From positions 1 to 64,000 of IMG/VR virus record IMGVR_UViG_3300033070_001583: a stretch of DNA of 64,000 nt, one strand, 5' to 3'. The position numbers and the translations under genes are program-made. Shown piece by piece: positions 1-63,962 of this stretch. Source of the DNA: a virus (lineage: Duplodnaviria; Caudoviricetes). Within the stretch, counting starts at the first letter, position 1, and the number at the start of each line of letters is the position of its first letter. Below the pieces are notes generated by a model, which worked only from the letters and a program-made list of their open reading frames with translations, did not search any database and was not told the origin of the DNA.

Positions 1-224
1 TTTGAGATTACGTTACAGAGCAAGTCATCGCCAAGATCAAGAGTGATCTTTTTATAAAAAGTTGAGTAACACGATCCACAGGCGCCGTGAGACTCGAGCT
101 TTTCTAGATCATATTGATCTGTACACGCATATCCGCAGTGCTTGCACATCAGCGTTTGGCACCGTGGTGCATCGATATAGTGAACAGTATGCTCACCATA
201 TCTCCTCTTCTCAATCGTTTGCAT
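1..224 (-). CDS. Partial small Zn-finger-like protein, runs off the left edge; absent from the ORF track
   Basis: ATG at 224..222 reads MQTIEKRRYGEHTVHYIDAPRCQTLMCKHCGYACTDQYDLEKLESHGACGSCYSTFY..., two CxxC pairs. Its ATG overlaps the TTA ending the upstream gene (TTATG). Confidence 0.6.
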   Translation of the reverse strand, partial: MQTIEKRRYGEHTVHYIDAPRCQTLMCKHCGYACTDQYDLEKLESHGACGSCYSTFYKKITLDLGDDLLCNVIS

Positions 225-3200
225 AATCCAATGTAATTCACATATGAGTCTTTTTCATGCTTTGAAATCTCAATGCAAGAGTCGACCGCGTCTTTCATCT
301 GTTCAACGTGAGAGACAACGATTAGAAATCTGAATCTTGATGCGATTGAACGCAAGAGTCTAATGCAAGAGTCGACTCCCGCAGGATCTAGTGTACCGAA
401 TCCTTCATCGATAATCATGAAGTCTGGCTTTGGAAGAATCGAGATTCCATGCAGTACTGTGCGTATTGCAATCGACGCAATCGTTCTCTCCATACCTGAG
501 CTCAGCTCAATGACTCTTCTTGAGTCACCGTAATTGATGTAAATTTCCAGAGAGTTAGTGTCTCCATCTGCCTCAAGATCGATTGTGAAATCAACAATTC
601 CAGCAAGAAGATTTGAAATTTCAGCGTTAACGATTGGCAATTTCTCGCGAACGAGGAGAGATGGCACTCCTTTCTTTGAAAACGCTTTGCTAACGTATTC
701 TCGTAGTATCAGCTGCTTCATGAGGGGTTCTTTTTTCGAGTACTCATGAGTCAGCAATTCAAGCTTTGCTTCAACGCGTCCAAGTTCTTTTTGCGCATCG
801 GCGTGTCGATTCTTCGCAGATTTGACATCTGCTTGCATCTTCGCCATTGTTAGACTCACTGCGTGAGTGTCTCCACCATCAGAAACATCTCCGAGGAGCT
901 CCAATTCTTTCTTGATTCCAGCAAGCTTCGACTTCATGTTATCAAGAGCGATTCTGTTTGAATCAGCAGTACGTTCGGCAGCGAGAATTTTACCCTTCGC
1001 AGAATCGTGTTCCTTCAACAGGATCACTGGATCGCCGCCCGGCGCTGGAATCTCGAGTTGTTTGATAAGATTCGCAATTCTCTCTTGTTCGTCAACGAAA
1101 TTCTTGTTTGCCTGAATTACTGCGTCTTTAATGAACTGACACGATGAAAATTCACCATTTCCTCCACACGGTACTTGCTTCAATCGTACTTTTGAAGTCT
1201 GTGCGAGATCGATCGCAGCTTCAATCTGACGGTAATCGCTTCTTGCAGATTGAAGCTGCGATCTTCTTGTCTGCTCTGCTGTTAGTCTCGCAAGAAGATT
1301 TTCGACATTCACACCATCAATTTCCTTACGCTTCATTTCGATTGCTTCAACAAGCTTCATCAAAGATGCCTCTTGCTGCTGAATCGAAGTAGTTAGAGAC
1401 GCCAAATCTGATGAGAGACTTGCATGTTTTGCTTTCTTCAGTTCGAGAGCAACAACATCTCCAAATTCACGCTTTGTTCTCTCTACGAAATCTGAATACT
1501 CGCGCTCAAGTTGCGAAAGTGTAACGTTCTCAATCTCTACTCTGTTTGTCGCATCCGTTATTGCATCAGACGTTGCAACGATATCTTGAGCAATTTTGAA
1601 TGTATCGTAATTCCCAATCGAAATCCTCAGTTTCGTACACTCGTTCTTCAGTGCATCGTGAAGCTTATCGAAATATCCAAGATCGAGATATCTCGAGAGG
1701 TACGTCCACCTAGCTGTAGAACCGTCTTTGATCAGCTTTGATATATCATCTTGAGTTGACACGGAAGTCGTGATAAAGTCATCCTGCGTACCAATCAGCA
1801 GTCTGATCATTCTATCTGTATCTGACCGTTGCTCACCAGTGAGCTGAGTTTCAATTCCATCCCTGTAGTGATGTACATCAACTTTCGTTGGAGCGCCGAC
1901 AAGACCTTTCTTTTCTGAAAATATTTTTGTTGTCTGACGCGAAATTGTAAGATTATCAGCATCATTCAGCTTCAATTTCATGAGCACATCACATCCTGAT
2001 TTACGGATGTTGACGATATGCGCATTTTTCACAGATCCCCTGTCTGTGCCATTGTACAGAGCGTAAATCAGAGTTCCTATAATAGAAGACTTACCGGCTC
2101 TGTTCGGAGCAAAGAGTCCAACAAGTCCAGAGAGTTTCGAAAAATCGATTCGATTTCCTTCTCCGTACCCAAATGTATTGTTGAATTCGAGATCCTCAAC
2201 GGTCCATGTCATCCCAACAGGACTGTCAGTCACGCCAATTGTGGCCTGAGCCTTCTTGATTGTATCGTATACGTCCTCACGAGAGAATTCTGAACGATCG
2301 TATTCGATTACAAGGTCAGTAAGTGTATTTGCATCTCTGTAATTTGTCCTGCTAAGATTTAGCGCAGCTGATTTCTGTTTTGGCTGTTCCTTTTCTGACT
2401 TGAAAGTAATTTCGATAGGATCAGAAACATGCTTTACAAGAGATGCAATGTGACGAGCGTTATCGCTGACAGTAATCTTGTCGATTCTGAATCGCGATTT
2501 TGGAGGATACTGTTTGATCTCGCTTACGAATGATTCTTCATCTCCCGTCCACGGTATCGTAACGTATGGATGATCATTTGCAATCTTGTGAAAAGTACAA
2601 GTCCACTTTGATTTCGATTCGATATCCCACAGAAGAAATCCGTGATCCTGGACATCTTCTCCGTAGTTCTGCTGTACCGTGCTACCAGGATACGCGATCC
2701 ATGGCATAGAGTCGCCATCATCACTCGTCTTGTAGCCAAGAAATTGCTGCTTATGGATGTCACCAAGCAAAGCAATGTCATATTCTGAGAAGAACCTCGT
2801 GTCGATGCTGCCATGCATTGGGATACCTGTTTCGAGACGGCATCCATCAACTGCTCCGTGGTAACAAGCAATGTTAAATGCATTGGGATCTGGCTTTACT
2901 GTATCCCAAGATTTTGTATCAAAGAGGCTGTACACGCACCATTTTACTGGCGTGCCGTCTTCTAGAGAGAATTCAGCATCGTAAGTTCCCGAATCTTTGT
3001 ACAGCTCAATGTTCTTACCAGAAGTCTTGATAAGATCAACGATTGGTGTAACGGCGTCGAGACGACTGAAATTTGAGAGGTTGCCATCGTGATTACCAAG
3101 GATCATCACAGTTGGCGCGCATGCTGTGAGTTTATCAATCCAGATTGACAGTTCCCTGATATACTCAGGGGATATCCCAGCAGTCTTTGTGTGAAAGATA

Positions 3201-3331
3201 TCGCCGCCAACGAAAATTCTGTCTACTTTAAGACGTTTTGCCTCCTCGCAAACTCGATCGAATACCGTTCTGTACTCATCGTGCCGGCTTTGACCTCTGT
3301 AGTGTACATCGGCAATGTGCAAAATTCTCAT
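224..3331 (-). CDS. sbcCD: Fused SbcD/Mre11 nuclease + SbcC/Rad50 ATPase, 1035 aa with TTA stop (track ORF ends at 149)
   Basis: Phosphoesterase motifs HIADVH, GGDIFH, GNHD, LGDIH; Walker A APNRAGKSS; coiled coil with central Cys pair; signature LSSGME; Walker B IIDEGFGTLD; H-loop VSH. First in-frame TTA at 226..224. Confidence 0.9.
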
Positions 3332-3366
3332 TTTCTACATCCAATCCTATTAATCTTTTGATCCTT

Positions 3367-4992: not shown

Positions 4993-5339
4993 GGCGCGAT
5001 TATACGCAAGTCAGCGTCAGTAACGATTGCGTAAGTGCACCCGTGAGCAATACACCAATCACGCGCGGCGATTGCTTTACGAACATTTTTCGGTTTGACG
5101 GTGTGTTTCTCTGGCTTTATCTCGACGACAACAACGCCATGCTGCGTTTGTACAATGAAGTCCGGCCAGTACCATCTTGTTTTCCTCCCGCGAGTGTACG
5201 GAATACAAATCTGCTCATACGCAAATCTGAGTACGCGCGGATCAGAATCAAGATAAGAAATATATTTTTGTTCAAGACCCGATCTGTATGAGACGACGGA
5301 GTCTAGAACCAGCTTTGGAGATGTGACAGTCCCTGTAAT
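4989..5339 (-). CDS. TnsA-N / T4 gp4-like head-completion endonuclease; start uncertain
   Basis: YRSGLEQKY...YEQICIPY...YWPDFIV...VVEIKP is a PD-(D/E)xK motif. No ATG near the domain start; candidate ATT at 5339 overlaps the upstream TTA. Confidence 0.7.
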   Translation of the reverse strand: MTGTVTSPKLVLDSVVSYRSGLEQKYISYLDSDPRVLRFAYEQICIPYTRGRKTRWYWPDFIVQTQHGVVVVEIKPEKHTVKPKNVRKAIAARDWCIAHGCTYAIVTDADLRIIAP

Positions 5340-9090: not shown

Positions 9091-9807
9091 TAAGATTCCC
9101 TTCACAATGTTGATTCTAAACTCTTTTGTCGCGCCTGATTGCAAACCAGTAACCTTTGCGTACGTTGATATCACGTTTTTGTCTGATACTGTTCCGTAAA
9201 CGTTGAACTGTGCATTCGTGATCGATTTCACAGAAAGAGTAAACTGAAGCGTCGATCCCTGGAACGCGTTCTCCCCAGCTGATCTTGGGAGAATGTATTT
9301 TGCAGTTTGTCTTGAGTCGATCGAATCAGGTGTACGACGGAAGATTCCGAGGAACAGATTTGAGATTTCGACACTGAAATTCTGATCTCTCAGCTCTACG
9401 TCGATTGTCTGCTCATCTTGAATTGTCTGCTCAATCGAAATCTTTGCTCCGCGTTGTCTCAGTGATCCGAGCGAGATAATGTTTGAAGTACCATTCACAT
9501 TCGAATCTCCAGAAAGAGAGAACGTTGGCAATCTAACAAGATTTGGATTGCTCACAGTAATGAGTCTATTCTTGAACGCCTGCGCTGACGTTGTAATCGC
9601 TTCGAAAACCGGAGTGTTCTTTTCGATTTTTTCTCTTCCGACAGTTCTGCCGTATCGTTTGATGATTGTGTAATCAACTTCATCATCACCAAAAGCGAAC
9701 TTTTGGATTCTGAAACTACCATCATTTGCTGCAATCAGAGCGCGACCTGCGTCTGTTAGCACAGCATCGAGGATAGGGCTGTTCGTTGAGTTGTCGATTA
9801 GTCCCAT
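9091..9807 (-). CDS. Virion structural protein with tail-collar-like N-terminus, 238 aa with TTA stop
   Basis: ILDAVLTDAGRALIA...IQKFAFGDDEVDY. Ends ATC TTA ACT TAA. Confidence 0.65.
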
Positions 9808-9822: not shown

Positions 9823-11595
9823 TAAGATAGTTTCCTGCGTCGAATTGAAAATTGGCTTCGTAACATCTTTTAGGGTTATCTTTACATCTGCCGATTTTTG
9901 CACGTCTGTGTTCACAAACGAAAGCGTGTATGATGTTCCGGCGTTTTCTGTCGACCAAGCTTTCAAGTCATTTCCCTGCACGTCTGTCACTTTTGAAATC
10001 TTCGGGCAGAGATACAGATTGAATGATCCTTTTCTCTTTATCTTAACAGAATCTATGAAAGCATCTCTGTTGAGGAAAAAATTTGGATATGCTTTTGGAG
10101 CTCCAGAACGTGAGACATAACGTTTTATGACTTTCCTCGTCATTGAATCGATCTCTATCTCATGCTGTACTGAGTATCCAGAGGTGATCCCATGCACGTC
10201 GATTGATACAACTGCATACGTGTAGATGCTAGACGGTTCGAATTGGCCGTCCTTTGCGAGATGAGGACCCTTGAATTCTGTATCGATCCACATCGTTACA
10301 GGGGAACTCACTTTCTTCACAAATTTGCTATCTGTACCCTCTGGATTCGTAGCATAATGCGGGCCATGATCGTACTCTTGCATGAGAGTGAATGGCTCAT
10401 TAATATTCGAGCGTCGAAACACTTGGAATCTTGAAATATCTCTCTGAGGATTGTACGGGTAATCCCATGTCAAAACAAGTCCACCAGCATCGGGATCCCA
10501 GATGAATTGTAGATCACCCGGAGGAGGTGGCGGTACATCCTCTGTCGTAAGCACATCTGTATAGACAGGACGAGATGATACAAATAGCTTCGCTGATTTT
10601 TCAACGCCCTCGACCGTCACGGCAACTGTTGCCTTTGCGATCGCCCTCACAGAGTACGTGTATGTAACTCCGTACTTGATTCCTGTATCGAGATAGGTGC
10701 TTATTCTCGATCCATTGATTATTCTCGAGAATATTTCCTTGTACTCTACTCCAATTTTTTCGTATTTCGAAAGAATATATCCAACCACCTGAGATTCCAG
10801 AATCGAATCTGAACTCTTTCTTTTTAGACCGTATGCTGGCTCTCCAAGATGCACTGGTGAGACATCGGCGCGTGATTGATTTGTGTTCAGATCGTACTTA
10901 CTCGTTATTGATTGCGTTTGCTCTCTCAATTTATTTGGATCGAGCATGATGGCTGCAGACAGAGCAGAAGCGTGTTCTTTCTTTACGATGAACGTCAGTT
11001 CTGGAGCATCCTCGGGCCGTGCAAGAACACCGTGAGAGGCTGGACCGGAAGATTTGCCACGATCTAGTTCTCTTGGTGTATCTCTGAATGAAATGTTCGA
11101 ATTTGTACGTCTATCTGACATGTAGTCAGTTATGAATGTCTGATCAACACCAGATCTCGTCGAGATATCTTTTGAAATATCTCGACGAGATGTTTTATTC
11201 TCCGTTTGAACAGACAGAATCGATCCAGAGACGACAGAGCGTACTTTTATGTCGAATTCAGGATCTCTAAAGCCAACATGAGTAAAATTTCCACTGCAAA
11301 CATCATCTTCGTAAACAATGCTATCTTTATGCTTGTCTAGTTCTGGATCTGCACGACCTGAGCCAGCAATCGCAGACCATGAGATGAGTACAGTTCTAGG
11401 AAGTCTTTTATTTGCATAATCTACAGTGCTAACGTCCGGGGCAACTGACTTGTATTTTTTGTTAAACTGAGTCGATTCAGAATCGTTCGTCAACTCATCT
11501 TCAGCGAAGTAGTTGTAATCGAAAGATGCTGTGAGATTATCTACTTCGGGAACATCGAATACAGCAACTCTATCTTTTGAAAATACGATCGTCAT
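9823..11595 (-). CDS. Virion protein with FnIII/Ig-like domains, 590 aa with TTA stop
   Basis: PPPPPGDLQF...LVLTWDYP...FQVFRR...YTYAVVSID is FnIII-like. Ends ATC TTA TCT TAG. Confidence 0.55.
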
Positions 11596-14500
11596 CTTAC
11601 AAACTCTGCTGAAATTGTGTATGTCTCGTATGAGACATCTCCTGGGATTGTTCCAACTCTAACTGTACCATCTTTCGATATTTCAAGCTTACCGCTTTTC
11701 ACAAGATGATCCATGTCAGAGTCAGATATCTTTGTCTTCGTCTCATCAACAACGAATTCGTTAGGATCGACAATTATCGAAAAGACTCTGTCGAATCTTG
11801 ACGCAACGAAGTATCTCTTAAGAAAATTCGTTGCGTCAGTGTGCTCACCGAATCTGTTGAATCTTTCCAAAAATTCATTTACGTTGTTATCAAGATCGTT
11901 GCTTGCAGTACCGCCTTTATCAAGAACTTTCTTTTCTGCTCTTGAAACAGTATCTTCTGTTATTTTTGGGGTGGGGCGGTCAGGAGGAGAAGACGTATTT
12001 TTGACCTTTTCAGAATTCTCACGCTCGGTAACTGATTCTTGAACGTAAGGAATGATCTGAGATGTTTTTGAAATATCTGGATATTCGTCTTCATTGATGT
12101 CTACACCAATCGTCATCGAAACGTAGTACCTCAATTCGATGTCTTCTAGATGAGATCTCATCAGTGAATTTTTCTCTTGCTGCGATAGAAATCCGTACGA
12201 TTGATCTGAGAATGCACGATCTCCGGCCGTGACAAGCTTTTTACCAGTGTGCGAAACAGCGAAGTCAGTTGTTTGAACATCATTTGGTGATTTGCTTCTT
12301 TCAAGAAACTCCCAGTCAACGAATCTTGACAACTCGTATGTTCTATAGAGTGGCTTGAATACAACGTTAGGAAGTTCGAGATCAGTTCTTGTTACTGCTA
12401 TTCTGATGATATCTTTCTGATTCTGTCCCACTCTTCCACTCTTATCTCTGTCTGAATTCGCGGAGAATTTTGAAAATCCTCTTGGAAATCCAATCTGCAT
12501 CAGTCTCGCATTATCCGCAGTCGGGTGTCTCCTGATGGGCTGCTTTGCTTGCAAAAGTGCAAAATCAAAATCTTTTGGATGCGTTTCTTGAATAATGACA
12601 GGTGTCGTGCCAGAGTCTAGTCTCATTCTTACGGCATAACGATCAAATCTCTCTCTCACCAGAGAGATTTGCTGTTCATCGAAAATCTTGTAAAATCCAT
12701 CCGCGCCGATTGTGTCGACAATTTTTTGGAATTCTTTCTTGTTATTTCTAAAAGTTCCGATTGCAAGATTGATCGAATCCAAAACAGTATTGATGCAAAC
12801 AAGAGGAAAGATATGATGAGCTATTTCTCGAGTTTTAAGCGTTTTGATGTCCTGAAGTACATTCCTTCTGCTCGAAGTGATGTCGAATTTTGGCTGAGTA
12901 ATCGAGTAAACAGTTGTATTCTGATCTACGGGCTTCTCTTGGGCTGGATTGTAATTGTTCTTCTTCTTTTTCTTTGACTCGTGAGCATTTTGATCGGCTG
13001 CGGTCGTTGGAGTTTTCTGAACCGTACCTGCAATGTCAGAACCAACATGGGTACTCACGAATAGCGCGAATGCGTAAAAATATGCAGACGCCATATCAAG
13101 ATCGCTCAGATAACCAAATGCAGTCCTACGAGTTTTCAGAAGAGCCGTCGAAGATCTCTCATCTCCATCAAGTTTCTTGATGAAATCTCGTACGAGCTCG
13201 CATGCAGTAAAGAAGATTGGAGACTTCACGTCTGCAAGACTTTCCTTTAGAGCTACGTCTCCGATTGAATTGAGAACACTACCAGAATTTCCAGCAGAAT
13301 TTCCTCTATTTGCCTGGACATACTCTGAAACGCGTGTAACGATGGAATCAAGAAGCTTTCCGGCAGCAGCAGACGTTGTTGATGTAGAAAGTGCTTGATA
13401 TCCCGTCTGCTGCTGATTCTGTTGCGTTGTCTTATCAGAAAAATTGCTAGCGTATATGCTGAGATCTTCGTATGAACGGATCACTGTGTACGTGCAGAGC
13501 ATTGCCAGCAATTTTGGATCCTGTGTTGCGAGATTGAACACTGCGCAGAGCGGATCAGATATACTCTTCTTTGCAAAATTTGAGACAGAGTAGCGATCTA
13601 GATCATCGTCAGGGAGCTCAGTTGTCTTTCCCTGCAACTCTTCGGGTCTAACAAGCAGATGCAATACGAAATCGTTATAAAGATCAGATGCACTCTTGTG
13701 TCTGTTCTTTTTCAGTTTTGTTGTGAACACATCAACTTCTGCGCAGTGAGCAACGAATGCATCTTGTACAGATTTGATATCGTCTCTGTACGCTGAGACA
13801 TTATCATCTTTTGTGATGCCGGCAAATTGACTAATCAGAGAATCTGTGTAGTAAATCGGTGCAGGAGTAAGATATCCACCCGCGACTGACTGGTAATCTG
13901 ATTCGAATGCTGCAATTCCAACTTTTGCCGTAGGTCTCAGCGTGATTGAATCAAGAGCCTTAGAATTTACAAATGAGTTTGTATAGCCAACGAAACTTTC
14001 AGAAACACCAGTGACTGCCTGCGGGAAGTTTTGATTCCCAGTTTGCTGAGCTACGAAATTGAAGTCTGATTGTAGTCTCGTTGCATTTTTCCCGTCAAGA
14101 ATAAGACGACTATATTTCAATTCTTTTTCGATACCAAACAGAATTGATGCAATTTTCCTCTGAGAAGAGAATTTCGTATATGCATCCTGAATTGTAGAAA
14201 TGCTCGAAAGGAATGGCGAATAAACTGACTTGATGTTTGTCTGTCCATTCAAAATCGATATCGCGTTCTGAATCGAAGGGCTTGCTATGAATTTCAGTTT
14301 GTCATAGCAGTCTTGGGTCTCTATTGACGGATCACGATCCTCGAGCCATGCAAATGCTCTCCTTGTGTCTTTCCTTCCTATTTCCTGTGTCAGGGCTGAG
14401 AGTGATCTGCGATACACTGCAGTGCCTGCCGAGTCGCTTGGTACGCTTGATATCCAGTTTGAGTATAGAACTCTAAGATTTCGTACGTTTCCGAGATCTT

Positions 14501-15176
14501 TTATGATGTTAGCGATTGCGTTCTTAAGAGTTGTACCTCTTAGCTCGACGTTATCTTCTAGAATCGAATACAAAGTATCATCGAGATCGATCTGCTGTTC
14601 CATCAGATTTTGGATATTGTGACCGATTCTTGCCTGGGAGAGAGAAATTGCAGATACGCTCAACACGTTCGAGAGTTGCTTTCCTGTTTCGATCGCTCTT
14701 TGAAATCTCTCTCTGTCGCTTCGAACTATATTTGCAGCAGCTTCGCTATACTTTGAGTGAGACTTGTCTGCCTCTGCACGAGACCACCTTGTAAATTTCA
14801 AGAGATTCTGTTTATCTCTCAGGTATTTTCCAAAGAGTGTCAAGTTTCCAGAATCAGTATAAACTGGTCTGTATTTTGCAAGATATATGATCTCTGGCAG
14901 TATCTGTGATGTCGAATCGACAGCACCATACGTGCTAAATGTTGATTGTACCCTCGGCGGATCCTGTGAGGGTTCAGGAATGAGATCTTTTGGACGGATA
15001 TCTGGCTTCTCTGCTGTTGGTGCAGGAATTCCTTCTTTATTTTTACCCTTCGCCTGTGCAGATGTACCGTCTTTCACTTTCTTGGGAGGAGGCTTCTTTG
15101 CGTCCTGTTTTGGAGGCGAGCTCTGAGTCGGTTGCTGATTGATTTTTGTCGATACATCGCTGAGTGGTTTCTTCAT
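11592..15176 (-). CDS. Large hypothetical, probably virion, protein (1194 aa)
   Basis: Long ORF inside the structural block, ATGA-coupled on both sides. No recognisable catalytic motif. Confidence 0.6.
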   Translation of the reverse strand: MKKPLSDVSTKINQQPTQSSPPKQDAKKPPPKKVKDGTSAQAKGKNKEGIPAPTAEKPDIRPKDLIPEPSQDPPRVQSTFSTYGAVDSTSQILPEIIYLAKYRPVYTDSGNLTLFGKYLRDKQNLLKFTRWSRAEADKSHSKYSEAAANIVRSDRERFQRAIETGKQLSNVLSVSAISLSQARIGHNIQNLMEQQIDLDDTLYSILEDNVELRGTTLKNAIANIIKDLGNVRNLRVLYSNWISSVPSDSAGTAVYRRSLSALTQEIGRKDTRRAFAWLEDRDPSIETQDCYDKLKFIASPSIQNAISILNGQTNIKSVYSPFLSSISTIQDAYTKFSSQRKIASILFGIEKELKYSRLILDGKNATRLQSDFNFVAQQTGNQNFPQAVTGVSESFVGYTNSFVNSKALDSITLRPTAKVGIAAFESDYQSVAGGYLTPAPIYYTDSLISQFAGITKDDNVSAYRDDIKSVQDAFVAHCAEVDVFTTKLKKNRHKSASDLYNDFVLHLLVRPEELQGKTTELPDDDLDRYSVSNFAKKSISDPLCAVFNLATQDPKLLAMLCTYTVIRSYEDLSIYASNFSDKTTQQNQQQTGYQALSTSTTSAAAGKLLDSIVTRVSEYVQANRGNSAGNSGSVLNSIGDVALKESLADVKSPIFFTACELVRDFIKKLDGDERSSTALLKTRRTAFGYLSDLDMASAYFYAFALFVSTHVGSDIAGTVQKTPTTAADQNAHESKKKKKNNYNPAQEKPVDQNTTVYSITQPKFDITSSRRNVLQDIKTLKTREIAHHIFPLVCINTVLDSINLAIGTFRNNKKEFQKIVDTIGADGFYKIFDEQQISLVRERFDRYAVRMRLDSGTTPVIIQETHPKDFDFALLQAKQPIRRHPTADNARLMQIGFPRGFSKFSANSDRDKSGRVGQNQKDIIRIAVTRTDLELPNVVFKPLYRTYELSRFVDWEFLERSKSPNDVQTTDFAVSHTGKKLVTAGDRAFSDQSYGFLSQQEKNSLMRSHLEDIELRYYVSMTIGVDINEDEYPDISKTSQIIPYVQESVTERENSEKVKNTSSPPDRPTPKITEDTVSRAEKKVLDKGGTASNDLDNNVNEFLERFNRFGEHTDATNFLKRYFVASRFDRVFSIIVDPNEFVVDETKTKISDSDMDHLVKSGKLEISKDGTVRVGTIPGDVSYETYTISAEFVR

Positions 15177-17323
15177 AATTCAGCACCAACTATTACAGGT
15201 TCGGTTCTCACTTCTTTTCCCAACTCGTAGTCATCATAAACAGGTCTCAGACCGAAGATCATCTGACCGACATGATCGTCAGATATTACAATATCAAAAC
15301 TCTGTTGGAGATTCGACGTAGCTGATCCAATCAGTTCCCTCAGCCCTCCGTCGTATCTGTATATTTGAATGTGATCGATGAATCTTGATCGAGACGTATT
15401 GCTTAGTTCCCACGAGATTGTAATTTTCTTTTTCTTCACCACCACGCGGGATGACAAAATTGTCGGTCTGATATCTGGAATAGTGATTTCGAAGTACTCC
15501 TCTTGACCGACCCTTCCGTATTCGAATTGACTCGAGCCAGAATTTTTCGATCTAGTGGCTGCAGAGGCAATCGCTCCAGTTCTCAGTGTAGTTGGATGCA
15601 GATGCACAGACGGTTTCTGCTTGTACACTCTGCCTCTGTACGTTTTCTCCACCTCTAGTGTATCGTAAAGCGTTGATGCATCTCTCAACATTGGACAAAT
15701 AGAGTACACATACTTTCTACCAGCTTTCAGTGGAGAGAGCTGTAGCTTTGCCGCAAGCGATTGATCGTCAAACGTTCCACCCGCGATTATATCGAAACAA
15801 GCTCTCTCTCCAGTGAGACAATCTACTCTTGTAATGTCATAAGCAATCAGCTTTTTTAGCTTATCGCGGTCAGACATGGACTCGTTTTCGTATAGAGTAG
15901 ATTTTCCCTGCTGGGCAATCAGTTGCGCAACAATATCGGATTGGTTTTGTTGTATCTCTATTGAAACGTCGAATGTTACATTCGGTCCAGATTCAAGAAT
16001 ATCTGCTTTTTCATTTTCGACCCTGATATCAAGTTTTGTCTCAGGTACTGGAAGATGATAGTGCGGATAGCTTCCCGCAGTTCTCATTACTCCATTCACA
16101 GTGTAATACCTGATTGCATACTCGTATGAATTCCACTGCTTGACATTCGTATCGTAAACAGATTCGTGATACGAAAAATCGCTGACAGATCTAAATTCAG
16201 AAACATATTCGAATTGATCTATCGAATTTAGTTTCCTCTTCACGATAGCAAATGAAACTGCAGATTTAGGGAGTCTAAACGTGTCAATTCTCACCCCTAG
16301 CGCGTCGTATTTCACCATGAACGACGGCTCAGAATCCTGTACATCGGTCGATATAACGCCACTACCAAAAATATTTTTCTTTGAACCTGCATAACCAACT
16401 GGTACGGCTCTGTATATCGTTCTTCCGTTCGAAACCGCTGAAACGATGAATCTAGCCATCCCATTCACGGCTGATTGCGACGTTATGAATGTGTAATCGC
16501 TCGCCTGGATGTCATCGAGTTTTCTAGAATAGAGCTCAAAACTTTCGATATTCTCTCTCTCTTTTGACGTGACATTTATTACGTGATCGCTTCCAATACG
16601 TCTAACGTCTACTGTAGGTTCAAGCTTAGGAGAAAGAAATTCAACGAGAGTAGCTTGGTGATTCACAACAATCTCGTATGAGTCTACGACGACGTTTCTA
16701 TCGTCCTTCGCGGAAATCGATATTGTAAAAGATTCCTTCCCATACTTGTAAAGTCTGCAGTGAGCGATTTTTGTCGTCTTTTCGTCTAGTACTGACACAT
16801 AGTGATCTGGTTCAAGATCAGAAGCGCTTTTTACTGAAACTATATTTGCAGACGTAACTGCGTCATCAATTCCTGCGAGACTTATTAGAGACTTTGGTCC
16901 GGTCGGAACAACACTTGTACCCTTTCTCGCAGCTGCAATCGAGATAATTTTCTTTGATGAAAACGTTGATTTTGCAGGATCAATCTGTGAATCGATTACT
17001 TTTTTTGAAAGGAGAGGATTGTTCTGTATCTCATACGATGCTGATGTCACCGGAAATGTGTGAGTCAACTGAAAATTTGCTGGTAGCTCTGCGGCTTGTG
17101 TTGCTTTGTAAACTTTTTTTGTGATTGTTTCAACAGAGCACTGTCTCTTCTCGTCTCCTCCTATGATCTCTGCAGAAATAGTACCTGTAAACTTCGAAGC
17201 ATTCGATAGCTTTACGTTCAACGAGTAAACCGTAACATCACGAGAGCGATTATACGATTCAATCTCGTAAGAATCTTCGTCGATCACAAAAATCTGTTGA
17301 CGCTTAATCTTTATGGGAATCAT
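15173..17323 (-). CDS. Virion protein with beta-sandwich/Ig-like repeats (716 aa); second half of the 999-aa track ORF
   Basis: ATG at 17323, three nt after an in-frame TTA. Beta-rich pattern with YEYAIRY and YVYSICP motifs. Confidence 0.6.
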   Translation of the reverse strand: MIPIKIKRQQIFVIDEDSYEIESYNRSRDVTVYSLNVKLSNASKFTGTISAEIIGGDEKRQCSVETITKKVYKATQAAELPANFQLTHTFPVTSASYEIQNNPLLSKKVIDSQIDPAKSTFSSKKIISIAAARKGTSVVPTGPKSLISLAGIDDAVTSANIVSVKSASDLEPDHYVSVLDEKTTKIAHCRLYKYGKESFTISISAKDDRNVVVDSYEIVVNHQATLVEFLSPKLEPTVDVRRIGSDHVINVTSKERENIESFELYSRKLDDIQASDYTFITSQSAVNGMARFIVSAVSNGRTIYRAVPVGYAGSKKNIFGSGVISTDVQDSEPSFMVKYDALGVRIDTFRLPKSAVSFAIVKRKLNSIDQFEYVSEFRSVSDFSYHESVYDTNVKQWNSYEYAIRYYTVNGVMRTAGSYPHYHLPVPETKLDIRVENEKADILESGPNVTFDVSIEIQQNQSDIVAQLIAQQGKSTLYENESMSDRDKLKKLIAYDITRVDCLTGERACFDIIAGGTFDDQSLAAKLQLSPLKAGRKYVYSICPMLRDASTLYDTLEVEKTYRGRVYKQKPSVHLHPTTLRTGAIASAATRSKNSGSSQFEYGRVGQEEYFEITIPDIRPTILSSRVVVKKKKITISWELSNTSRSRFIDHIQIYRYDGGLRELIGSATSNLQQSFDIVISDDHVGQMIFGLRPVYDDYELGKEVRTEPVIVGAEL

Positions 17324-17326
17324 CTT

Positions 17327-18172
17327 TAACTCACTGAATTCGAGACAAAAAATACGAACGAAATTGTTGCAACCATTCGCGTCAGTGAACGTTTTCCCTA
17401 GGAATACAATCAATGGATTTTCAGAAAAGACTCTTGCCTGGAGCTTCGAGATATCTCCTCCGGAGTACTCGTAACTCTGCATGATGATATTTCCCTCAAC
17501 TGTTGTCGGATCGAATACGATCCGTTTTGAAGGATACGATTTCATCTCCAACCTAACATCTTTGACTGTTTTCTTTCTTGTCGCCTCGCCACTCGGTTTG
17601 TAAACACCTAGCTTGTCTCCATCGCGATCAATTGGTGGCATGTAACTGAAGTTATCGAGTGTTGACATGTCAGGATCTTCAAAGAGAGAATCGTGATCTT
17701 CAATCTTTTCTACTACGTTGTAACTTACTGGGCTCTCTTGAGTAACTGTGAACGAAACATTAGACGGACCTGCAGCAAAGCCATCGTCTCCAAAATCTTT
17801 GTTGACTGTCATCAAAATTCTTTGACGAGAGAGATTGACAGATGGCAACGCTGTCAGTTCATCAGTAATCGAATCGAGAGATCCTGTACTAAAGATTCTC
17901 GATCCAACGAGGTTAAACGTCTCTGACTTCAACGGAGCAAGCTTTCCGGAATCGTCTGACTCTAGAGTCACGAGATCGTGCGGAGAGCTGCCTTGTTCTA
18001 TGAATGCTAGACCTGCTACATCGTATGAGCCAGATACTGGAGCCGAGTAAACAACTCCGGTATCTGTCACGCTGGCATAGGAAATTTTGAAGGTACCAGC
18101 AGCAAGCTGCTTTCTTCCCTCGCTTGTTATTACTACATCTGCGATCTGAGATGCTGGATCAAGAATTCCCAT
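17327..18172 (-). CDS. Virion protein, N-terminal paralogue of 9091..9807 (281 aa, TTA stop)
   Basis: MGILDPASQIADVVITSEGRKQLAAGTFKI resembles MGLIDNSTNSPILDAVLTDAGRALIAA. The only in-frame TTA of the 999-codon ORF is at 17329..17327. Confidence 0.65.
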
Positions 18173-18181
18173 GTACTCATA

Positions 18182-19564
18182 TTACAATATCTCGCTCGCA
18201 AGAGTTGCAAGTTCTGAACGTACTCCTCTTATGAGAGATGCATGGGCAGAGATCTTCTTCCCTGCGAATCTGTCTACGACAATTGAAAGACCGCACGTTT
18301 TTGCATTCACGTGAGGATTATCAATCTGAGACATGTCTCCCATGAGAATTACCTTCGTGCCCTCTCCAGCTCGCGTGATAATTGTCTTGAGCTCGTGAAT
18401 TGTCAGATTCTGTGCTTCGTCGACAATGAAATACGAGTTTGTAATAGATCTTCCACGTACGTGTGAGATTGCTGCGATTTCGATTGTACCGTTATCAATC
18501 ATCAGATCCACGTAGGGGTCACCCGTTGTTACCTGAGAAGAGATACCATACGAGTTTTTGCCGTCCCTTCCAGACTTGGTCTGGCCACCTTTGCGTTCAT
18601 TCTTGGAAGAGTTCGGAAGTAGCTGAACGAGGTTATCCTTGATCGATCCAATCCAGGGCATCATCTTCTCCTCGATTGTACCCGGGAGGTACCCAATGTC
18701 TTTTCCAACGGGAATGACCGATCTTGTCACAATGAGCTTCTGATATACAGCTTTCTCGCCATGAGAAAACTTGTTCAGCTGACCTAGGCCGGCCGCTAGG
18801 GCAAGAAGAGTCTTGCCAGATCCAGCGGCTCCAGTCATCAATACAAGAGAGACATCTGGATCCGTCAAAACATCAAGAGCGTACCACTGCTCTTTATTCT
18901 GACCGGAGATATTGAACACCTTTTGCTGTTTGAGCGTTTCTAGCTTCCCATCTTTCCATCTGCAAAGCATCGTAGCAGAATTTGCTTCGTTGATCGCAGT
19001 CACGAAGTCATTTCCAACTGTCTCAATCGGCCAGTTTGAAGTGTCGAGAAACTTCTGTCTGCACAGAGTTTCGAACTCAGTCGGCGCAAGAAAAACGCTA
19101 TCGTCAGCTTTGACTGGAGTTGGGTCTTTCTTGTAAACGCCAGTTGCACTTTTGAAATCCTCAGATGTGATTCCAAGAGCTGCTGCCTTGACTCTAAGGT
19201 TCGCATCTTGGGTTACGAGGATAGGACAGTCAATCCCTGATGTTATTACAGCTTCAATGATCTTGTTGTCATTTTTCGTAAAATCAAGCTGATTCTCATC
19301 AAGCTGCTTTCTTTGAGTAAGAATGAACCTAAGTTTTCCACCTTCCGGAGTTGTAAGTTCACTTCTATTTTTCCCACGTGTGAGCTCATCAAGATTTCTG
19401 ATCACTGTGCGAGCCAGCAATCCGACATCGTCTTGCCGCGATTTCAAGTGATCGAGCTCTTCAATAACAACAAGAGGAATGTATACGTCGTGCTCTGCAA
19501 AACACGCATATCCCTCAGGATTAGTGATGAGAACGTTTGTATCGAGCACGTAATTTTTCTTCAT
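18182..19564 (-). CDS. phoH: PhoH-family ATPase with N-terminal PIN domain
   Basis: YVLDTNVLI (PIN), GAAGSGKT, RGRSI, IVDEAQN, GDMSQID. Confidence 0.92.
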   Translation of the reverse strand: MKKNYVLDTNVLITNPEGYACFAEHDVYIPLVVIEELDHLKSRQDDVGLLARTVIRNLDELTRGKNRSELTTPEGGKLRFILTQRKQLDENQLDFTKNDNKIIEAVITSGIDCPILVTQDANLRVKAAALGITSEDFKSATGVYKKDPTPVKADDSVFLAPTEFETLCRQKFLDTSNWPIETVGNDFVTAINEANSATMLCRWKDGKLETLKQQKVFNISGQNKEQWYALDVLTDPDVSLVLMTGAAGSGKTLLALAAGLGQLNKFSHGEKAVYQKLIVTRSVIPVGKDIGYLPGTIEEKMMPWIGSIKDNLVQLLPNSSKNERKGGQTKSGRDGKNSYGISSQVTTGDPYVDLMIDNGTIEIAAISHVRGRSITNSYFIVDEAQNLTIHELKTIITRAGEGTKVILMGDMSQIDNPHVNAKTCGLSIVVDRFAGKKISAHASLIRGVRSELATLASEIL

Positions 19565-19583
19565 CCTGCACAGATCATACGAT

Positions 19584-19847
19584 ATGGTTGATGATTGTGT
19601 TATGAAGAAACTTAATGTTTTGAATCAGAAGTGCTACGAACTCGTTGCAGAACACTCAGTTCCCTGCAATCGGAAATCGTGTTCTGCATGGGTTAAAACA
19701 GAAGAGTACAAGAATTGCTCAATTCTTGCGTCTGAACGTAAACACACTCTAGAAGAGATCAGTAATATGTTTGATATCTCACGTATGAGAATCTGTCAAA
19801 TCCAATACGATTCAATCAAACAGATTCACTCTGCACTTCAGATGTTA
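19584..19847 (+). CDS. Stand-alone sigma70 region-4 HTH with Cys-rich N-terminus (87 aa, TTA stop)
   Basis: HTLEEISNMFDISRMRICQIQ matches the sigma4 pattern TLEEIG..F.VTRERIRQIE; four Cys upstream. TTA at 19845. Confidence 0.75.
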
Positions 19848-20130: not shown

Positions 20131-20140
20131 GCAGTAATTA

Positions 20141-21101: not shown

Positions 21102-21132
21102 GCTGTATCATTGTCCTTTTAGGTACTGATTT

Positions 21133-21808: not shown

Positions 21809-21826
21809 GAAAAGAAACTCCTCAAA

Positions 21827-22072: not shown

Positions 22073-22079
22073 GTACCGA

Positions 22080-44518: not shown

Positions 44519-46353
44519 CAACATCAGATACAAAAACACAGCAAGTACGCCAGCGAACGTATCTGAACAGAGACTTCGCGACAAACAGGAATGCAATTGT
44601 CAATTACGCAAGGAAGTACTACCCAACAAAAATTCAAGATCTATCTGAAACAGGTGTTGGAGGTCTTCTTGTAGATATGGCGGCAGTCGTAGGAGACAAT
44701 CTAAACTTCTATCTCGATTTCCAGTTCTCAGAACTCGATATCGATACAGCAGTAGAAAATGTCAACATTGAACGTGCTCTTAGGAACTCTGGCGTTCCAA
44801 TTTCTGGTGCGGCGCCGGCGATTGTACCAGTTGATATTACGTTCGAGATACCGGCAGTAACGACAGGTGGAAAATCTGAGCCAGATACGACTGCACTTCC
44901 AGTACTACAAACTGCAGTAATTGCTAGCGATTCTGGAGTGCAGTTCAATCTATTGGAATCCATAAACTTTACAACAAGAAACGCAGATGGTACTCTTGCA
45001 GCATCTGTTTCAATACTGAAAACATTCCCTGATGGAACAATTAAAAGCTACGCTATCACGAAAAGAGGAACAGCACTCTCTGGAAATATAACGACAGAAA
45101 CTGTTGTCATCGGTTCAAACTTCGTGCCATTCAGAAGAGTTGCTCTCTCGCAGAAAGATATTTCAGAGATTATCAGCGTGCAAGATGATCTAGGAAATGT
45201 GTATTACGAAGTAAAAGATTTGAGTCAAGATACCGTTTTTGTTCCTGTTACGAATACGTCGTCTGACTCGATGGAGGTACCGTCAAGCCTGAAAATGATA
45301 TCTGCACCGTACCGTTACACAAAGCAAGTTGAACTTTCGACTCGATCTACTGTTCTAACTCTCGGTGGCGGTAATGCAGAAACATTTGAGGATGACGTAA
45401 TTCCAGATCCATCGGACATAGCGCTTCCGTATCAGTACAGATCTAGCTTCCCGATTGAGCCAATCGATCCGAATTCTTTGCTAGCAACGAAGACTCTTGG
45501 AGTATACGCCGTCAATACAAACCTGAACGTGACGTACAGGTATGGAGGAGGATTGAATCACAATGCAATCGCAAATTCAATCAGATCTGTCGAAACATTT
45601 CAGCTTACGTTTCCTGGAAATCCTTCATTCTCGGTTTCAAGGAGCGTGAGAGCATCGATTAAATGTAACAACCCTGTTCGCGCAAGAGGCGGTGACGATG
45701 CTCCTTCTATCGATGAGCTGAAGTCTGTTGTTGGCGCATATAGGAATTCGCAATCGAGAATCGTGACTGCAAGCGATATGCTGGCCAGAGTGTACACGCT
45801 CCCATCAAATTTTGGACGTGTGTACAGGGCCGGAATCAGATCGTCATCTAATTCTCCATTTGCAACAAAACTTTACATCATCTCTAGGGACGGAGATGGT
45901 AAGCTCGCTGTATCAAGTGATACACTGAAGAAAAATCTAAGAACGTATCTCAACCCGCAGAGACTGATAGGAGATGCAGTCGATATTCTTGATGTGAGCA
46001 TCGTAAATCTGAAAGTCGAATTTGATATTTCAACCGATTCAATATCGAACCGTCAGGTTGTGATCCAGTCAGTCCTCAAGAATTTGAAAAAGTTCTTTGA
46101 CACAAAGAACTTTAACGTAGATCAGCCGATCATCATCACTGAGGTATCGAAAGTCATCTCGATAACGCCTGGTGTCATATCTGTAAATCAGATCAAATTT
46201 TCTGAATTGCAGGGATTCATAAACAACAGAGAATATCCTGGTTCGTCTTTCGATGTTGCCGGATCAACGAAGCGAAACATTTTGTACCCGCCAGAGGGCG
46301 GAATGTTTGAGATAAGATATCCAGACACTGACATTATTGGAAGAGCAGAATTA
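44515..46353 (+). CDS. Baseplate wedge protein, gp6/baseplate-J-like (612 aa, TTA stop)
   Basis: YLNRDF, LNFYLD, YRYGGG, RIVTASD; ends YPDTDIIGRAE then TTA-A-ATG of the next gene. Confidence 0.85.
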
Positions 46354-56799: not shown

Positions 56800-57960
56800 A
56801 TGCCAACGTATAAAGGATCTATTGAGCATCTGTTTGCCGTGATACCGACAATATCGGGAACGATTCAAGCAATGTTCAAAGTCACATATGACTTTCTGAA
56901 CAGCGGATCTGATCTCGGGATTCAGAGACTTGCATATAACACCGGGACTCGACCGAGCGACTGCGGACAAACAGGTACGAATTTTTATGATCAGAATCAG
57001 CCGTTCGGAGATAATAGCTGGGCGTGTTTTAGATTTGCGTCTGCTTCTGTTCCATTCGACATTCTCATACAGTACTCTGGTACGGGAGTAACATTCGGTA
57101 ACACGACGAACGATCATGCGAAAATAGGAGGTTCTGCAGCTGCATCACAAAATAATTTTGGAATTGCTGTTGCGACTGCATTTAGCGGATCGACGGCAAT
57201 CGACCCGTGGAACGGAACGACAACGCTAAGCGGATCTGATCGAAAGGGTACGGCGGTCTGGACAAGCGGATCTGCAACAAATAGATTGTCTGTATTTCCA
57301 CGCTCTAATGCATTTGGAGGATCGTTTGTTACAACAAATGACGATATGGTCGCATTCGTATTTCAGTTTTCGACTTCGGCTCCGCACAGATATCAAATCG
57401 TTGCAAGCAAAGATTCAATCTATATCGCACGTGATCAGTGGGATGACTCTGCATACGATAAATTTTTCTATGCTGGATCGTATAATCCGATTAGCGGAAG
57501 CTCTCCTACTGTACCATTTGTTGTTTGGTCTCCCCTTACGACGAATGAAACTGCTGGTACTCAAATACCAGCAACGACGGTTGGAACGTCGTACTCTACA
57601 GACGGAGGAATAGCACATCCGCTTTTTGTCGATACGAAATTTCTATCTATTGATCGTCTTTCGTATTTTAATCAAACAACTGCGTTGCAACCGAATAACT
57701 CTTTCTCTCCAACACAATACGATGAATTTCCGATCTACGTTGGAATGAACGAAACGACATCATCGTACGGAATATGCGGCACGCTAGACTTTGTACGCGA
57801 AATATACAAAACGAATGTGCACGATATCAATAACGTTACACAAAGGGCCGTACTAGGATCAGACTCATCTGTTTCTTCGATCAAGCACTCAATCCCATGG
57901 GTTAGCGGAACGACTCCAGGAACAGGTACAACTCGCGCAGGAGTTCAATTCTCGAGGTTA
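56800..57960 (+). CDS. Putative tail fibre/virion protein (386 aa, TTA stop)
   Basis: Ser/Thr/Gly-rich; ends TTRAGVQFSR then TTA-C-ATG of the next gene. Confidence 0.6.
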
Positions 57961-57961: not shown

Positions 57962-58264
57962 ATGGCAGTAATCAATTCAAATTTTGCAGGTACACTCGGC
58001 ATTCAGCACGGGCCTAGAATCAGGGAACTGAATACTAATAAGCTTGTTGTAGAATTTAGTGGATCGATTCAATACGTAACGGTGACGTCTCCTCTCAAGA
58101 CGGTCTACAAGATGAAGGCATGGTCGAACGTAAGCAACCGTCACATTTATTGGGTTGCAACGTCATCGACGACTGGGCATCCTGTGTCTGGTTCAATGGC
58201 TGATACATCGCACGTTGTTGGTCATCAATCTCTTGACTTTACTGCGTTTGATATCACTCCATTA
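57962..58264 (+). CDS. Small virion-type beta protein (100 aa, TTA stop)
   Basis: TTA at 58262..58264 is the reverse complement of the convergent gene's TAA. Confidence 0.6.
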
Positions 58265-58718: not shown

Positions 58719-59129
58719 TAATTCACCGGGAGTCATGTCAGGAGGTGGTTCGGGATAGAACCGCTTGCGCTTTTTCTTTTGATTTTTGGAAGCGCTATGA
58801 GGAGATTTTACGATGCTGATATCGAGTCTCCTTCCACACACATCAAGAGCTAGCTCTTCATTGTACCAGCCAATCTCTTTTTTATCTCCTTCGCCTCTCG
58901 ATAGCAAAAAAGCCTTCGTAATCTCGCCGCCCGATTGAAGTATGTCGATACCGATACCTTCGAATTCTTTTTCTTCGAATCCCTGAAGAATCACACGAGT
59001 CGTGTATCCCAAATCAGAGAATTTCTTGTCTGTCTTCTTACGAAGATATGCGTGTACGCTGATGACATCATCGACAAGACAAAGAATCGTGGGCTCGTGG
59101 AGAAGATTCCGAAATTTGTATGTGATCAT
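58719..59129 (-). CDS. Hypothetical protein (136 aa, TTA stop)
   Basis: GAA TTA G ATG junction with the next gene. Confidence 0.55.
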
Positions 59130-59415: not shown

Positions 59416-59721
59416 TCAGTTAAGCTTTGATTCTAGATTTTCAAGCTTAAGCCATTTTTTCGTTTTTATTGCATATCGTATCGATTCAGCATCAGGAATC
59501 TCGATCCACAGTTTCAATCCTGTAAGAGAACGCTTTCTCTGTGCAGAAGGAAGAAGCTTGTAACAAGCATCACAGATTTTCGTTTCTTTTTGAATCGAAA
59601 CGTAAGTCGCAAAATCTCCGCATGAACACTTTGGTACGTATACGGAGATAATGTCTAGAAGCTTTGCGATTCCGTTTGCAAGAACAAGGCCAACGTTCGC
59701 TTTTGGTTTTGTACGTTTCAT
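59416..59721 (-). CDS. Small Zn-finger-like protein
   Basis: CSC...CDAC. Confidence 0.55.
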   Translation of the reverse strand: MKRTKPKANVGLVLANGIAKLLDIISVYVPKCSCGDFATYVSIQKETKICDACYKLLPSAQRKRSLTGLKLWIEIPDAESIRYAIKTKKWLKLENLESKLN

Positions 59722-59903
59722 AATTTTGAGCTCGAATATCCGTCAGATGCCCAGCCGCCGCCAACCAACAAGAATTTCGTCAGAGAGATCAATCTTTTGA
59801 ATCCTTCTGATCCGCATTTTGGACATTTGGTAGGTACATCGTCTTTCACACTTGCCTCGTATTCACTGATTTCGCACACCTTGCATTGGCACTCATATAT
59901 CAT
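59721..59903 (-). CDS. FmdB-family zinc-ribbon protein (60 aa, TTA stop)
   Basis: MIYECQCKVC...CPKCG...KRLIS...F.L.GGGWASDGY is the FmdB pattern; ends AAA TTA TGA. Confidence 0.85.
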
Positions 59904-62742: not shown

Positions 62743-62773
62743 CACCTATATAATACTCGGGAGATCATAGATC

Positions 62774-63040
62774 ATGGCAGCATTGGGAGATATTGTAAAG
62801 TTTACACTGACGGTTGAAAGTGCATTGCTCGACCGCCCTGCAATTGTGATGGACGCAATGGGCGATACACTTCAACTGATGGTGTTTGTTGACGGATTGG
62901 CTGATTCGACCGGTCTTGAAGAGAACGAAAAGATCGAAAATCAGCCTGCAGTTGGCGGAAATAACGTACCAGTCAAGTGCGTTATGAGATCATCTGTTTC
63001 AAAGAACCTCACGCAGACAGCCGGGTGCTGGCGTCCCTTA
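62774..63040 (+). CDS. Small phage beta-barrel-like protein (88 aa, TTA stop)
   Basis: RPAIV...LQLMVFVDG...SSV...GCWRP then TTA; I recall this phage family ending at G.W..P. Confidence 0.6.
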
Positions 63041-63060
63041 GACGCTAGAGAGTCTCGCTT

Positions 63061-63109
63061 CTTAAATGCACAATGGGACTTCGAATCGAAGTCCCATTGT
63101 GCATTTAAG
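63061..63109. terminator. Perfect 24-bp inverted repeat with 1-nt spacer; probable bidirectional terminator or cruciform
   Basis: CTTAAATGCACAATGGGACTTCGA-A-TCGAAGTCCCATTGTGCATTTAAG between convergent genes. Confidence 0.75.
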
Positions 63110-63113
63110 CCTC

Positions 63114-63962
63114 TAATCTGAACTTGCGTCTCTTACCCGTTGGATGAATCAGGATGAGATCATTCGAGAAACAGACAGATCCGTCAATCTGAGCTCCTTC
63201 TGGTATGACAGAGTCCAAATCGAGAGCGCATCCGCTTCCATCTGTCACGTCGCAGTAAATGTCCCAGCTGTAAGCGCAGGACCACTCTACGAATTCAGCA
63301 TCTGTGAGGTGATACTCATGCTTGTCTTGAAGCTTATTTAGCAGCACGTCAATCAGTCTGTTAAGCTTCGTTCCAGTCAGACGTAGCCCACTGTATGCCG
63401 CAGGGTCTCCAGCGAGATACGAGTCATTCGCGAGCTTATCTGTGTTCCTTCTTGTTGCAGGGACATATTGCGCATTTTTGAGACGGTCCGGAGGATTAAA
63501 CATATGCGTTGTCGCAATCCCACGACCAGAAGTTTTGAACTCAGGCACCCAGACAGTACCTGCCGGAGAGAGATAGTTCTGATGCGTCTCATACGTGCCC
63601 TTTGAGCGTGTTACTGAATCGATGAGACTGGAAAGCTTATTCAAGAAAGTTTCAGCAGGCAAGAGATCTGTTTCAAGATCTTGATTCATTGAAAAATTCA
63701 ATGTATATGAAACTTTGTCATAATTGCCAGCAGGTCTCTTCTCTTCAAATCCGGTGTGTAGGTAGTAAGTGTATCCTGCAGCGTCAAGAGCTTTATTTAC
63801 GATCTGTTGGAACGTGTTCTCGTCAATCGTAATGAGACGTTTCGGTAGTCTCTCGGCAGCTGCAAGAATCTCTTGAAAATACTTACGACGAGCCCATACA
63901 TCGTCTCCAGCTTGCCCAGGTGGTTCTGATTCGAGAATCAGATTCTTTAGTGTATGATTCAT
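63114..63962 (-). CDS. Hypothetical protein with LKNLILE N-terminus (282 aa, TTA stop)
   Basis: Ends ILIHPTGKRRKFR then TTA. Confidence 0.65.

Follow-up and report, generated by a model that had tools for sequence, protein, structure and literature searches.

UUA as a probable fourth stop codon in a lineage of T4-like jumbo phages

The window, which is the whole stretch of DNA analysed here, is 64,000 nucleotides (nt) long and covers positions 1 to 64,000 of a linear IMG/VR record of 75,153 bp (G000; IMGVR_UViG_3300033070_001583). It has a guanine-plus-cytosine (G+C) content of 44% and carries genes for an SbcCD-like nuclease, a PIN-PhoH protein, ClpP, an MT-A70 methylase and a baseplate-wedge-like protein that matches phrog_219 (baseplate wedge), along with a block of glycosyltransferase, Glf, radical-SAM and methyltransferase genes. 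The subject of this report is the codon TTA (UUA in the messenger RNA), which is missing from the interior of these genes, stands at the end of many of them, and probably acts as a stop codon. The record is not a whole genome: its completeness is 21% (CheckV), and it represents part of a T4-like jumbo phage.

The latter assignment follows from a syntenic relative found in two assemblies, ERZ869929 NODE_3 (255,832 bp) and ERZ869911 NODE_2 (255,853 bp), whose proteins are 70-96% identical to those of the window. The two contigs begin at different points, so the relative's genome is probably complete and circularly permuted. It was sampled at 1-76 kb and 217-256 kb (~115 kb of 255.8 kb), and it carries a T4-type large terminase, an intein-bearing portal, a prohead protease, a gp23 capsid protein, gp13, two sheath genes and baseplate genes (Pfam Gp23, Portal_T4, Peptidase_S77, Terminase_6N, Phage_T4_gp13, Phage_sheath, T4_baseplate and GPW_gp25). 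The capsid protein is only 31-41% identical to those of the nearest named phages, and a DNA search of cultured phages returned no match to the window.

TTA in the window and in its closest relative

The 57 open reading frames (ORFs) of at least 100 amino acids (aa) that translation table 11 yields in the window comprise 20,939 codons. In these, TTA occurs in frame 23 times, compared with 214 occurrences of TTG, 230 of CTA and 465 of CTT, and the positions of these 23 are telling: 17 lie no more than 29 codons from a canonical stop, four fall within the first 16 codons, upstream of the likely true starts, and two sit at in-frame joints between genes (17329-17327 and 21829-21827). None is interior, which bears out the hand scan of the first-pass annotation over a similar number of codons. 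The proposed count against synonymous usage gives an expectation of about 190 in-frame TTA (TTG x CTA/CTG), and the in-frame/off-frame ratio of 0.4-0.9 seen in normal-code relatives of similar G+C predicts 244-550. Off-frame TTA is frequent, with 611 occurrences in gene bodies, 62 of them in the 1299-aa gene alone. Of the 61 sense codons, each tried in turn as an extra stop, TTA kept the most ORF length (90%), and CGG, the next best, kept 79%. In line with the further claim that stopping at TTA removes implausible overlaps between neighbouring genes, overlaps longer than 10 nt drop from 15 to 9, with one of 256 nt (at 36257-36259) among those that disappear.

The same pattern is seen outside the window. 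TTA ends 19 of the 69 genes in the record (~28%) and 33 of the 98 in the 255.8-kb relative (34%), and no interior TTA occurs in the sequence sampled from the latter. Independent assemblies agree, including ENA contigs ERZ869929 and ERZ869911, a JGI 12-kb contig, a Logan contig and IMG/VR contigs. Across 24 ortholog pairs between window and relative (8,836 aligned codons), the five other leucine codons are nearly randomised, and TTA is absent in both genomes.

TTA interchanges with canonical stops at gene ends. Five window ends (19845, 32651, 36257, 46351 and 57958) align exactly with a TGA or TAA in the relative, four more (226, 15178, 20143 and 22082) align with a canonical stop to within a residue or in a diverged tail, and in the reverse case a TAA of the window (23154-23152) aligns with a TTA of the relative. 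At eight further ends TTA is kept in both genomes and the sequences diverge after it. Alignment of homologues, as had been proposed, thus places TTA at their stops and never in leucine columns.

The sequence that follows TTA is without coding constraint. Codon log-odds are +0.12 for the 20 codons before TTA, -0.13 after TTA and -0.12 after canonical stops (p = 8e-6, p = 0.82). The extensions that table 11 would add beyond TTA are not shared by homologues, with divergence setting in right after the codon. At nearly all TTA sites the next gene follows with a start of its own, often preceded by a Shine-Dalgarno motif, and the TTA-N-ATG and TTATG junctions resemble TGA-N-ATG couplings. The first-pass annotation had cautioned that many TTA ends have a canonical stop nearby; this is true of 11 of the 19, which have one within 7 codons, but a second stop is found equally close behind 19 of 50 canonical ends, and the difference is not significant. 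There is accordingly no sign that back-up stops are needed, and their presence was rejected as a mark of leaky termination.

Gene ends at TTA

All 19 TTA sites listed in the first-pass annotation are in frame, each of them either closing an ORF at its 3' end or marking an in-frame joint, and a twentieth was added at 15178-15176. Those that match a canonical stop exactly are all on the plus strand. At 19845-19847, TTA ends a small gene (87 codons from the first start) whose product is 79% identical to the relative's up to the position where the latter has TGA. A 119-aa gene ends at 32651-32653, where the relative has TAA (...RKRG, then TAA), and the same three base pairs also form the TAA of a convergent CHAP-domain gene. 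The 127-aa gene ending at 36257-36259 has its counterpart in a relative's gene that closes with ...KC and TGA, with the downstream bases conserved; here the table-11 ORF extends over 35876-36499 and into the next gene, which begins at 36244, and this is the 256-nt overlap mentioned above. The 612-aa baseplate-wedge-like gene ends at 46351-46353 with the next ATG one base on, and its predicted C-terminus, ...IIGRAE, is matched by the relative, in which TGA follows at exactly this point in an ATGA overlap. The 386-aa gene ending at 57958-57960 is likewise followed by ATG one base on, and aligns exactly with a relative's gene ending in ...GVQFSR and TAA, the two phages differing by 2 nt in the distance from the stop to the ATG.

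The near-exact cases are all on the minus strand. The SbcCD-like nuclease/ATPase gene (1035 aa) ends at 224-226 in a TTATG overlap with the next start; its table-11 ORF is 25 codons longer, and the relative's ortholog of 1034 aa has TGA within one residue of the same position. A 342-aa gene ends at 22080-22082, and its ortholog ends in TGA, with the last 10-14 residues diverged and the alignment therefore not exact. The 715-aa gene closes with TTA TGA at 15176-15178, where the relative reads ACG TGA, and this end is equivocal, being either a tandem stop or a last leucine. Also equivocal on its own is the TTA TAA that ends a 114-aa gene at 20141-20143; the relative has a TGA just upstream of the same conserved hairpin. 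This hairpin (TTACTGCA ... TGCAGTAA, 20105-20140, minus strand) lies directly 3' of the TTA TAA and looks like a terminator.

At other sites the relative retains TTA. The protein of a 78-aa gene (5336-5338, minus) is identical in both phages before TTA and diverges right after TTA CAG G. In the 590-aa gene (9823-9825, minus) TTA is present in both phages despite differing C-terminal tails, and the relative's next canonical stop lies 15 codons on, inside the following gene. A 100-aa gene (58262-58264, plus) has its TTA kept in the relative after ...FDITP, with unrelated sequence downstream, and the same base pairs form the TAA of a convergent gene. The 136-aa gene (58719-58721, minus), which is followed by ATG one base on, has an ortholog that also has TTA at codon 136. 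In two cases the retained TTA is equivocal alone, namely a 238-aa gene (9091-9093, minus), which has TAA 2 codons on and in which the codon after TTA is ACT in one phage and CAG in the other, and a 273-aa PD-(D/E)XK-family gene (37063-37065, plus), in which a second TTA and TAA follow 4-5 codons on and the relative shares this TTA ... TTA TAA layout.

Two further sites on the minus strand are joints at which table 11 fuses neighbouring genes. The TTA at 17327-17329 stands between in-frame genes of 281 and 715 aa whose homologues are separate proteins (282/289 aa and 716 aa). In three phages a conserved GAG TTA precedes the next ATG, with 0, 4 or 5 nt in between; spacers of such lengths indicate that the stretch after TTA is non-coding, and among the three the two genes are in frame only in the window, by chance. 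At 21827-21829, TTA ends a gene of ~110 aa and is followed by GAGGAG, a spacer and the next gene's ATG, all in frame, where the relative reads TTA CTT TAG GAGAG ... ATG and has two separately called genes of 84 and 159 aa. The claim that a stop at TTA resolves both fusions is thus upheld by the separate genes in relatives. The remaining sites were read from the window itself: TTA TGA ends a 79-aa ORF (59721-59723, minus) in an ATGA overlap with the next gene and is equivocal, an 88-aa ORF ends at 63038-63040 (plus) on the reading of the ORF, and the first member (282 aa) of a tandem paralog array ends at 63114-63116 (minus) on the reading of the ORF and junction. Other members of the array, in both the record and the relative, also have a TTA end with a canonical stop close behind.

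Some further features of these genomes were observed along the way. Past the tandem paralog array, a block of small ORFs (L007 6000-11153, corresponding to 70-75 kb of the record, beyond the window) shows a rise in G+C to 55-62%, compared with 44% before it. A chimeric origin of this record end was considered and rejected, because the relative has the same rise after its paralog array (L346 1-7000), which makes the rise a feature of the lineage. The homologue search with a gene near the record end found only the gene itself, and two window proteins scanned against viral and genome collections found nothing. In the relative, two large sheath-like genes of 996 and 1028 aa lie side by side (L076 11255-17361), and the intein of the T4-type portal gene (L005 11524-15147) contains an HNH endonuclease domain. 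The JGI 12-kb contig (L002 1-12252) is 100% identical to window 11900-23900 for ~6 kb and thereafter only 88% identical at the protein level, which suggests a recent recombination mosaic.

The trait among related phages

The major capsid gene allows the trait to be followed beyond the closest relative. In 79 IMG/VR relatives this gene ends with the same last residue (...D[M/L]N[I/V]I), followed by TGA in 37, TAA in 29, TAG in 10 and TTA in three. The three genomes with a TTA-ended capsid gene (L077, L078 and L085) are exactly those without interior TTA. The L077 capsid protein is 95% identical to that of the 255.8-kb relative (L005), and the stop codon is TTA in the former and TGA in the latter. 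Two in-frame terminators three codons apart were seen after the capsid gene in this pair, both being TGA in one phage and both TTA in the other (L077 11890-11905; L005 21471-21485).

Most relatives (56-66% capsid identity, 34-47% G+C) use TTA normally, at the in-frame/off-frame ratio given above, whereas in the window's lineage the ratio is 0.02-0.04, with the residual counts coming from fused ORFs. A second lineage, formed by L078 (40% G+C) and L085 (47% G+C), also has TTA only at gene ends and joints. In a quick-search capsid tree, well-supported branches that contain normal-code phages separate this lineage from that of the window, and the trait therefore appears in at least two separate branches. 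The reach of the change is accordingly narrower than the whole phage group: it holds in particular branches.

A sister of L078 and L085 within the same T4-like capsid clade, G006 (IMGVR_UViG_3300037010_002844; 309 kb, 91% complete, 55.6% G+C), is an intermediate. TTA is strongly depleted in this phage (22 in 82,362 codons), its genes rarely end in TTA, and its ~49 tRNAs include Leu-CAG, Leu-UAG and Leu-CAA, with no Leu-UAA. Judged by its codon use, G006 looks like a stage before the capture of TTA as a stop, and the related phages together suggest a progression in which TTA passes from normal use through rarity to a role as stop, a final step that would have been taken more than once. Adaptation to a property of the host accounts for such repetition more easily than does repeated invention of a phage factor, and transfer of a factor between phages may also be the cause.

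Within its tRNA island G006 carries a short class-I release-factor-like gene (L243 7033-7700, minus strand; 260.5-261.2 kb), which is without domain 1, has PPT and GGQ motifs, and contains a prfB-like AGGGGT CTT TGA G at which a +1 frameshift is needed. The family has 6,902 members, many of them on contigs of jumbo-phage size. This gene was considered as a UUA reader and rejected, given that the same PPT motif is found in phages with normal TTA use and that the gene has TTA at its own near-invariant leucine; its presence in normal-TTA phages shows that the family is not specific to the trait. As separate observations, one G006 tRNA has the anticodon UUA (reading UAA) and two have CUA (reading UAG), beside ~46 ordinary ones (L244 4776-4851; L245 1502-1650), and gene coverage of G006 under table 11 is only 80%.

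Interpretation and comparison with known systems

Taking termination by decoding and by stalling with release together, it is very probable that TTA ends genes in this lineage and is not leucine. It is likely, judging from the gene structure and its comparison across genomes, that UUA is more specifically a decoded fourth stop, read by a release factor beside UGA, UAA and a rarely used UAG. Support for the reassignment is strong as regards gene structure and the comparison of genomes, as distinct from protein chemistry. TAG ends only 3 of 167 genes in TTA-stop lineages (2 of 69 in the record, 1 of 98 in the relative) versus 39 of 412, or 9.5%, in normal-code relatives (p = 1e-4), which leaves a stop set that is essentially U-(A/G/U)-A. 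Such a set hints at a factor of the release factor 2 (RF2) type with relaxed reading of the second base. In the mechanism envisaged, UUA would not be read as leucine in cells infected by this phage lineage and would end translation, given the lack of an effective UUA-decoding tRNA-Leu(UAA) and the action of an RF2-type class-I release factor with relaxed second-position recognition (U-A/G/U-A); of the possible mechanisms, this is the most likely, and it is the one proposed for organelles. The factor and the missing tRNA would be properties of the host or of the unsampled 55% of the phage genome, with a slight lean towards the host because the capsid tree places the trait on at least two separate branches. 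A fuller scenario, in which UUA was captured at least twice within one T4-like jumbo-phage clade and is read by an RF2-type U-(A/G/U)-A factor borne by the phage or by an undescribed host, is offered only tentatively and is, in its entirety, rather doubtful.

Several observations weigh against a decoded stop. Neither the 75-kb record nor five related IMG/VR fragments yielded an RF-1 or PCRF domain, and no release-factor gene was found by Pfam annotation in the sequence sampled from the relative. ARAGORN detected no tRNA genes in the 75-kb record, nor in 49 kb and two further 20-kb stretches of the relative; the related fragment G003 has tRNA-Ala only, and the 75-kb record has no other translation-related Pfam families. 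The termination machinery is therefore hypothetical, and the four-stop code claimed in the first-pass annotation stands on gene structure and comparative genomics. Neither the standard release factor 1 (RF1) nor the standard RF2 is known to read UUA. Several of the TTA ends have a canonical stop 1-7 codons on and are individually compatible with a last leucine. In G006, TTA encodes leucine at conserved positions (the FEN motif and the nearly invariant leucine of the short release-factor-like gene), which means that scarcity of the codon is by itself no proof of a stop. The same finding indicates that a test on conserved leucines can detect sense use, and TTA at conserved leucines, the expectation under the standard code, is not seen in the window's lineage. 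As for a host, the closest homologues of Glf are in metagenome-assembled genomes (MAGs) of Planctomycetota (52-54% identity), but these use interior TTA (64 in 55,444 codons); ESM Atlas points weakly to Bacillota.

The main alternative, though an unlikely one, is that UUA is an unassigned, or hungry, codon for which there is no tRNA, either because the host is without tRNA-Leu(UAA) or because the phage destroys it, such that ribosomes stall and are then released by rescue (an ArfB-type hydrolase, near-cognate RF2 or drop-off). It would produce the same comparative picture of TTA at gene ends and not in gene bodies, and it is favoured by the failure to find a dedicated release factor and by the G006 tRNA complement without Leu-UAA. 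PIN domains include tRNA-cutting toxins, and the window encodes a PIN_4-PhoH fusion of the PhoH2 type (460 aa; 18182-19564, minus strand), which by this association is a candidate for tRNA depletion; yet this protein matches phrog_2765, a large and common phage family, and is thus not specific to the trait. With TTA at the end of a third of all genes, and of the major capsid gene in three phages, release would have to be fast and clean, whereas ribosome rescue by the known routes is slow or marks its product for degradation. The close likeness of the TTA-N-ATG and TTATG junctions to ordinary TGA couplings also speaks for a regular stop.

The other alternatives have far less to recommend them. 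Under the standard code with extreme bias, TTA would be a very slow leucine codon tolerated in the last few codons of a gene, with readthrough to the canonical stop; the nearby stops at 11 of the 19 ends, several of them forming TTA-TGA, TTA-TAA or TTA-TAG pairs, and the example of G006, in which a depleted TTA is still leucine, are consistent with this. It is nevertheless very improbable, because it would yield fusions of 999 and 276 aa that are absent in relatives and would give L077 alone a 35-codon capsid tail, and because it does not account for the five exact swaps at orthologous ends or for post-TTA codons that are non-coding by composition and carry indels that are not multiples of three; moreover, the nearby stops show no excess over those behind ordinary ends. 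Programmed recoding at TTA, by ribosome hopping or frameshifting at a rare codon, has been proposed for the UUA-headed coding gaps described in Streptomyces phages (PMC10732093), and a possible instance exists in the relative, where two TTA, spaced 12 codons apart, separate a 92-aa ORF from the portal body and table-11 calling fuses the two. The Pfam portal domain begins 71 residues after the GTG that follows the second TTA, however, and a separate upstream gene explains the layout; the new starts that follow nearly all TTA sites and the ordinary stops that relatives have at the same places make recoding a remote prospect in general. An artefact, be it an error in sequencing or assembly, a modified base read as T, or a recoded sequence of synthetic origin, would have to be frame-specific, with off-frame TTA remaining abundant, and would have to recur at the same TTA sites in assemblies that come from four or more sources and show natural divergence (70-100%). 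No support for it was found, and its probability is close to negligible.

If a decoded UUA stop is accepted, a bacteriophage would provide a case, outside organelles, of a sense codon converted to a stop, and the repeated change of this codon among close relatives would provide a natural series of normal, rare-leucine and stop use. The long-standing question of how release factors gain a new codon would become directly testable, and its answer bears on phage-host conflicts over translation and on how recoded organisms are designed. There is a practical side as well, since standard annotation mispredicts C-termini and fuses genes, with at least 20 genes affected in 64 kb. Should the phage carry the factor, UUA-containing proteins of the host and of rival phages would be truncated, and the change of code would be a weapon of host shutoff and exclusion; should the host carry it, a bacterial lineage with a four-stop code would have been missed by current gene callers and code-inference tools.

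The literature searched yielded no account of a UUA stop in a phage or bacterium; sense-to-stop reassignment is described there only for organelles (mitochondria and plastids), and the recoded phages found in it go from stop to sense. UUA is a stop in Thraustochytrium and other labyrinthulean mitochondria (NCBI table 23), in peDinoflagellate plastids (with UCA) and in the mitochondria of Marsupiomonadales (with UUG), and these changes are tied to substitutions of the serine (Ser204) in the SPF motif of RF2 or to an altered mtRF1a (PMC12574857). The phage case is alike in that a leucine codon becomes a terminator, is absent from sense positions, and is found at the stops of homologues beside canonical stops. 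The organelles differ in having small genomes and nuclear-encoded RF2 or RF1a with identified substitutions, whereas the phage has a genome of ~256 kb at 44% G+C and no release factor identified; in addition, UCA and UUG stay ordinary sense codons in the phage, and the trait recurs in separate phage branches.

In recoded crAss-like and Lak phages, TAG or TGA is read as an amino acid. Similar to these, the genes of the phage described here are misread by table 11 and close relatives keep the standard code. In stop-codon-recoded phages, however, only late genes are changed, while here the change extends over the whole sampled genome, runs in the opposite direction (from sense to stop) and involves no suppressor tRNA. 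In Streptomyces, UUA is a rare codon with a tRNA of its own, bldA, and UUA heads gaps in actinophage genes (PMC10732093). In both settings UUA is singled out, probably by a scarce or absent host tRNA. Streptomyces and its phages have ~70% G+C, so that TTA is rare by composition, and there it still encodes leucine or heads bypassed gaps, whereas in the phage lineage described here, at 44% G+C, an expected 200-500 TTA are missing as sense codons and TTA takes the place of ordinary stops.

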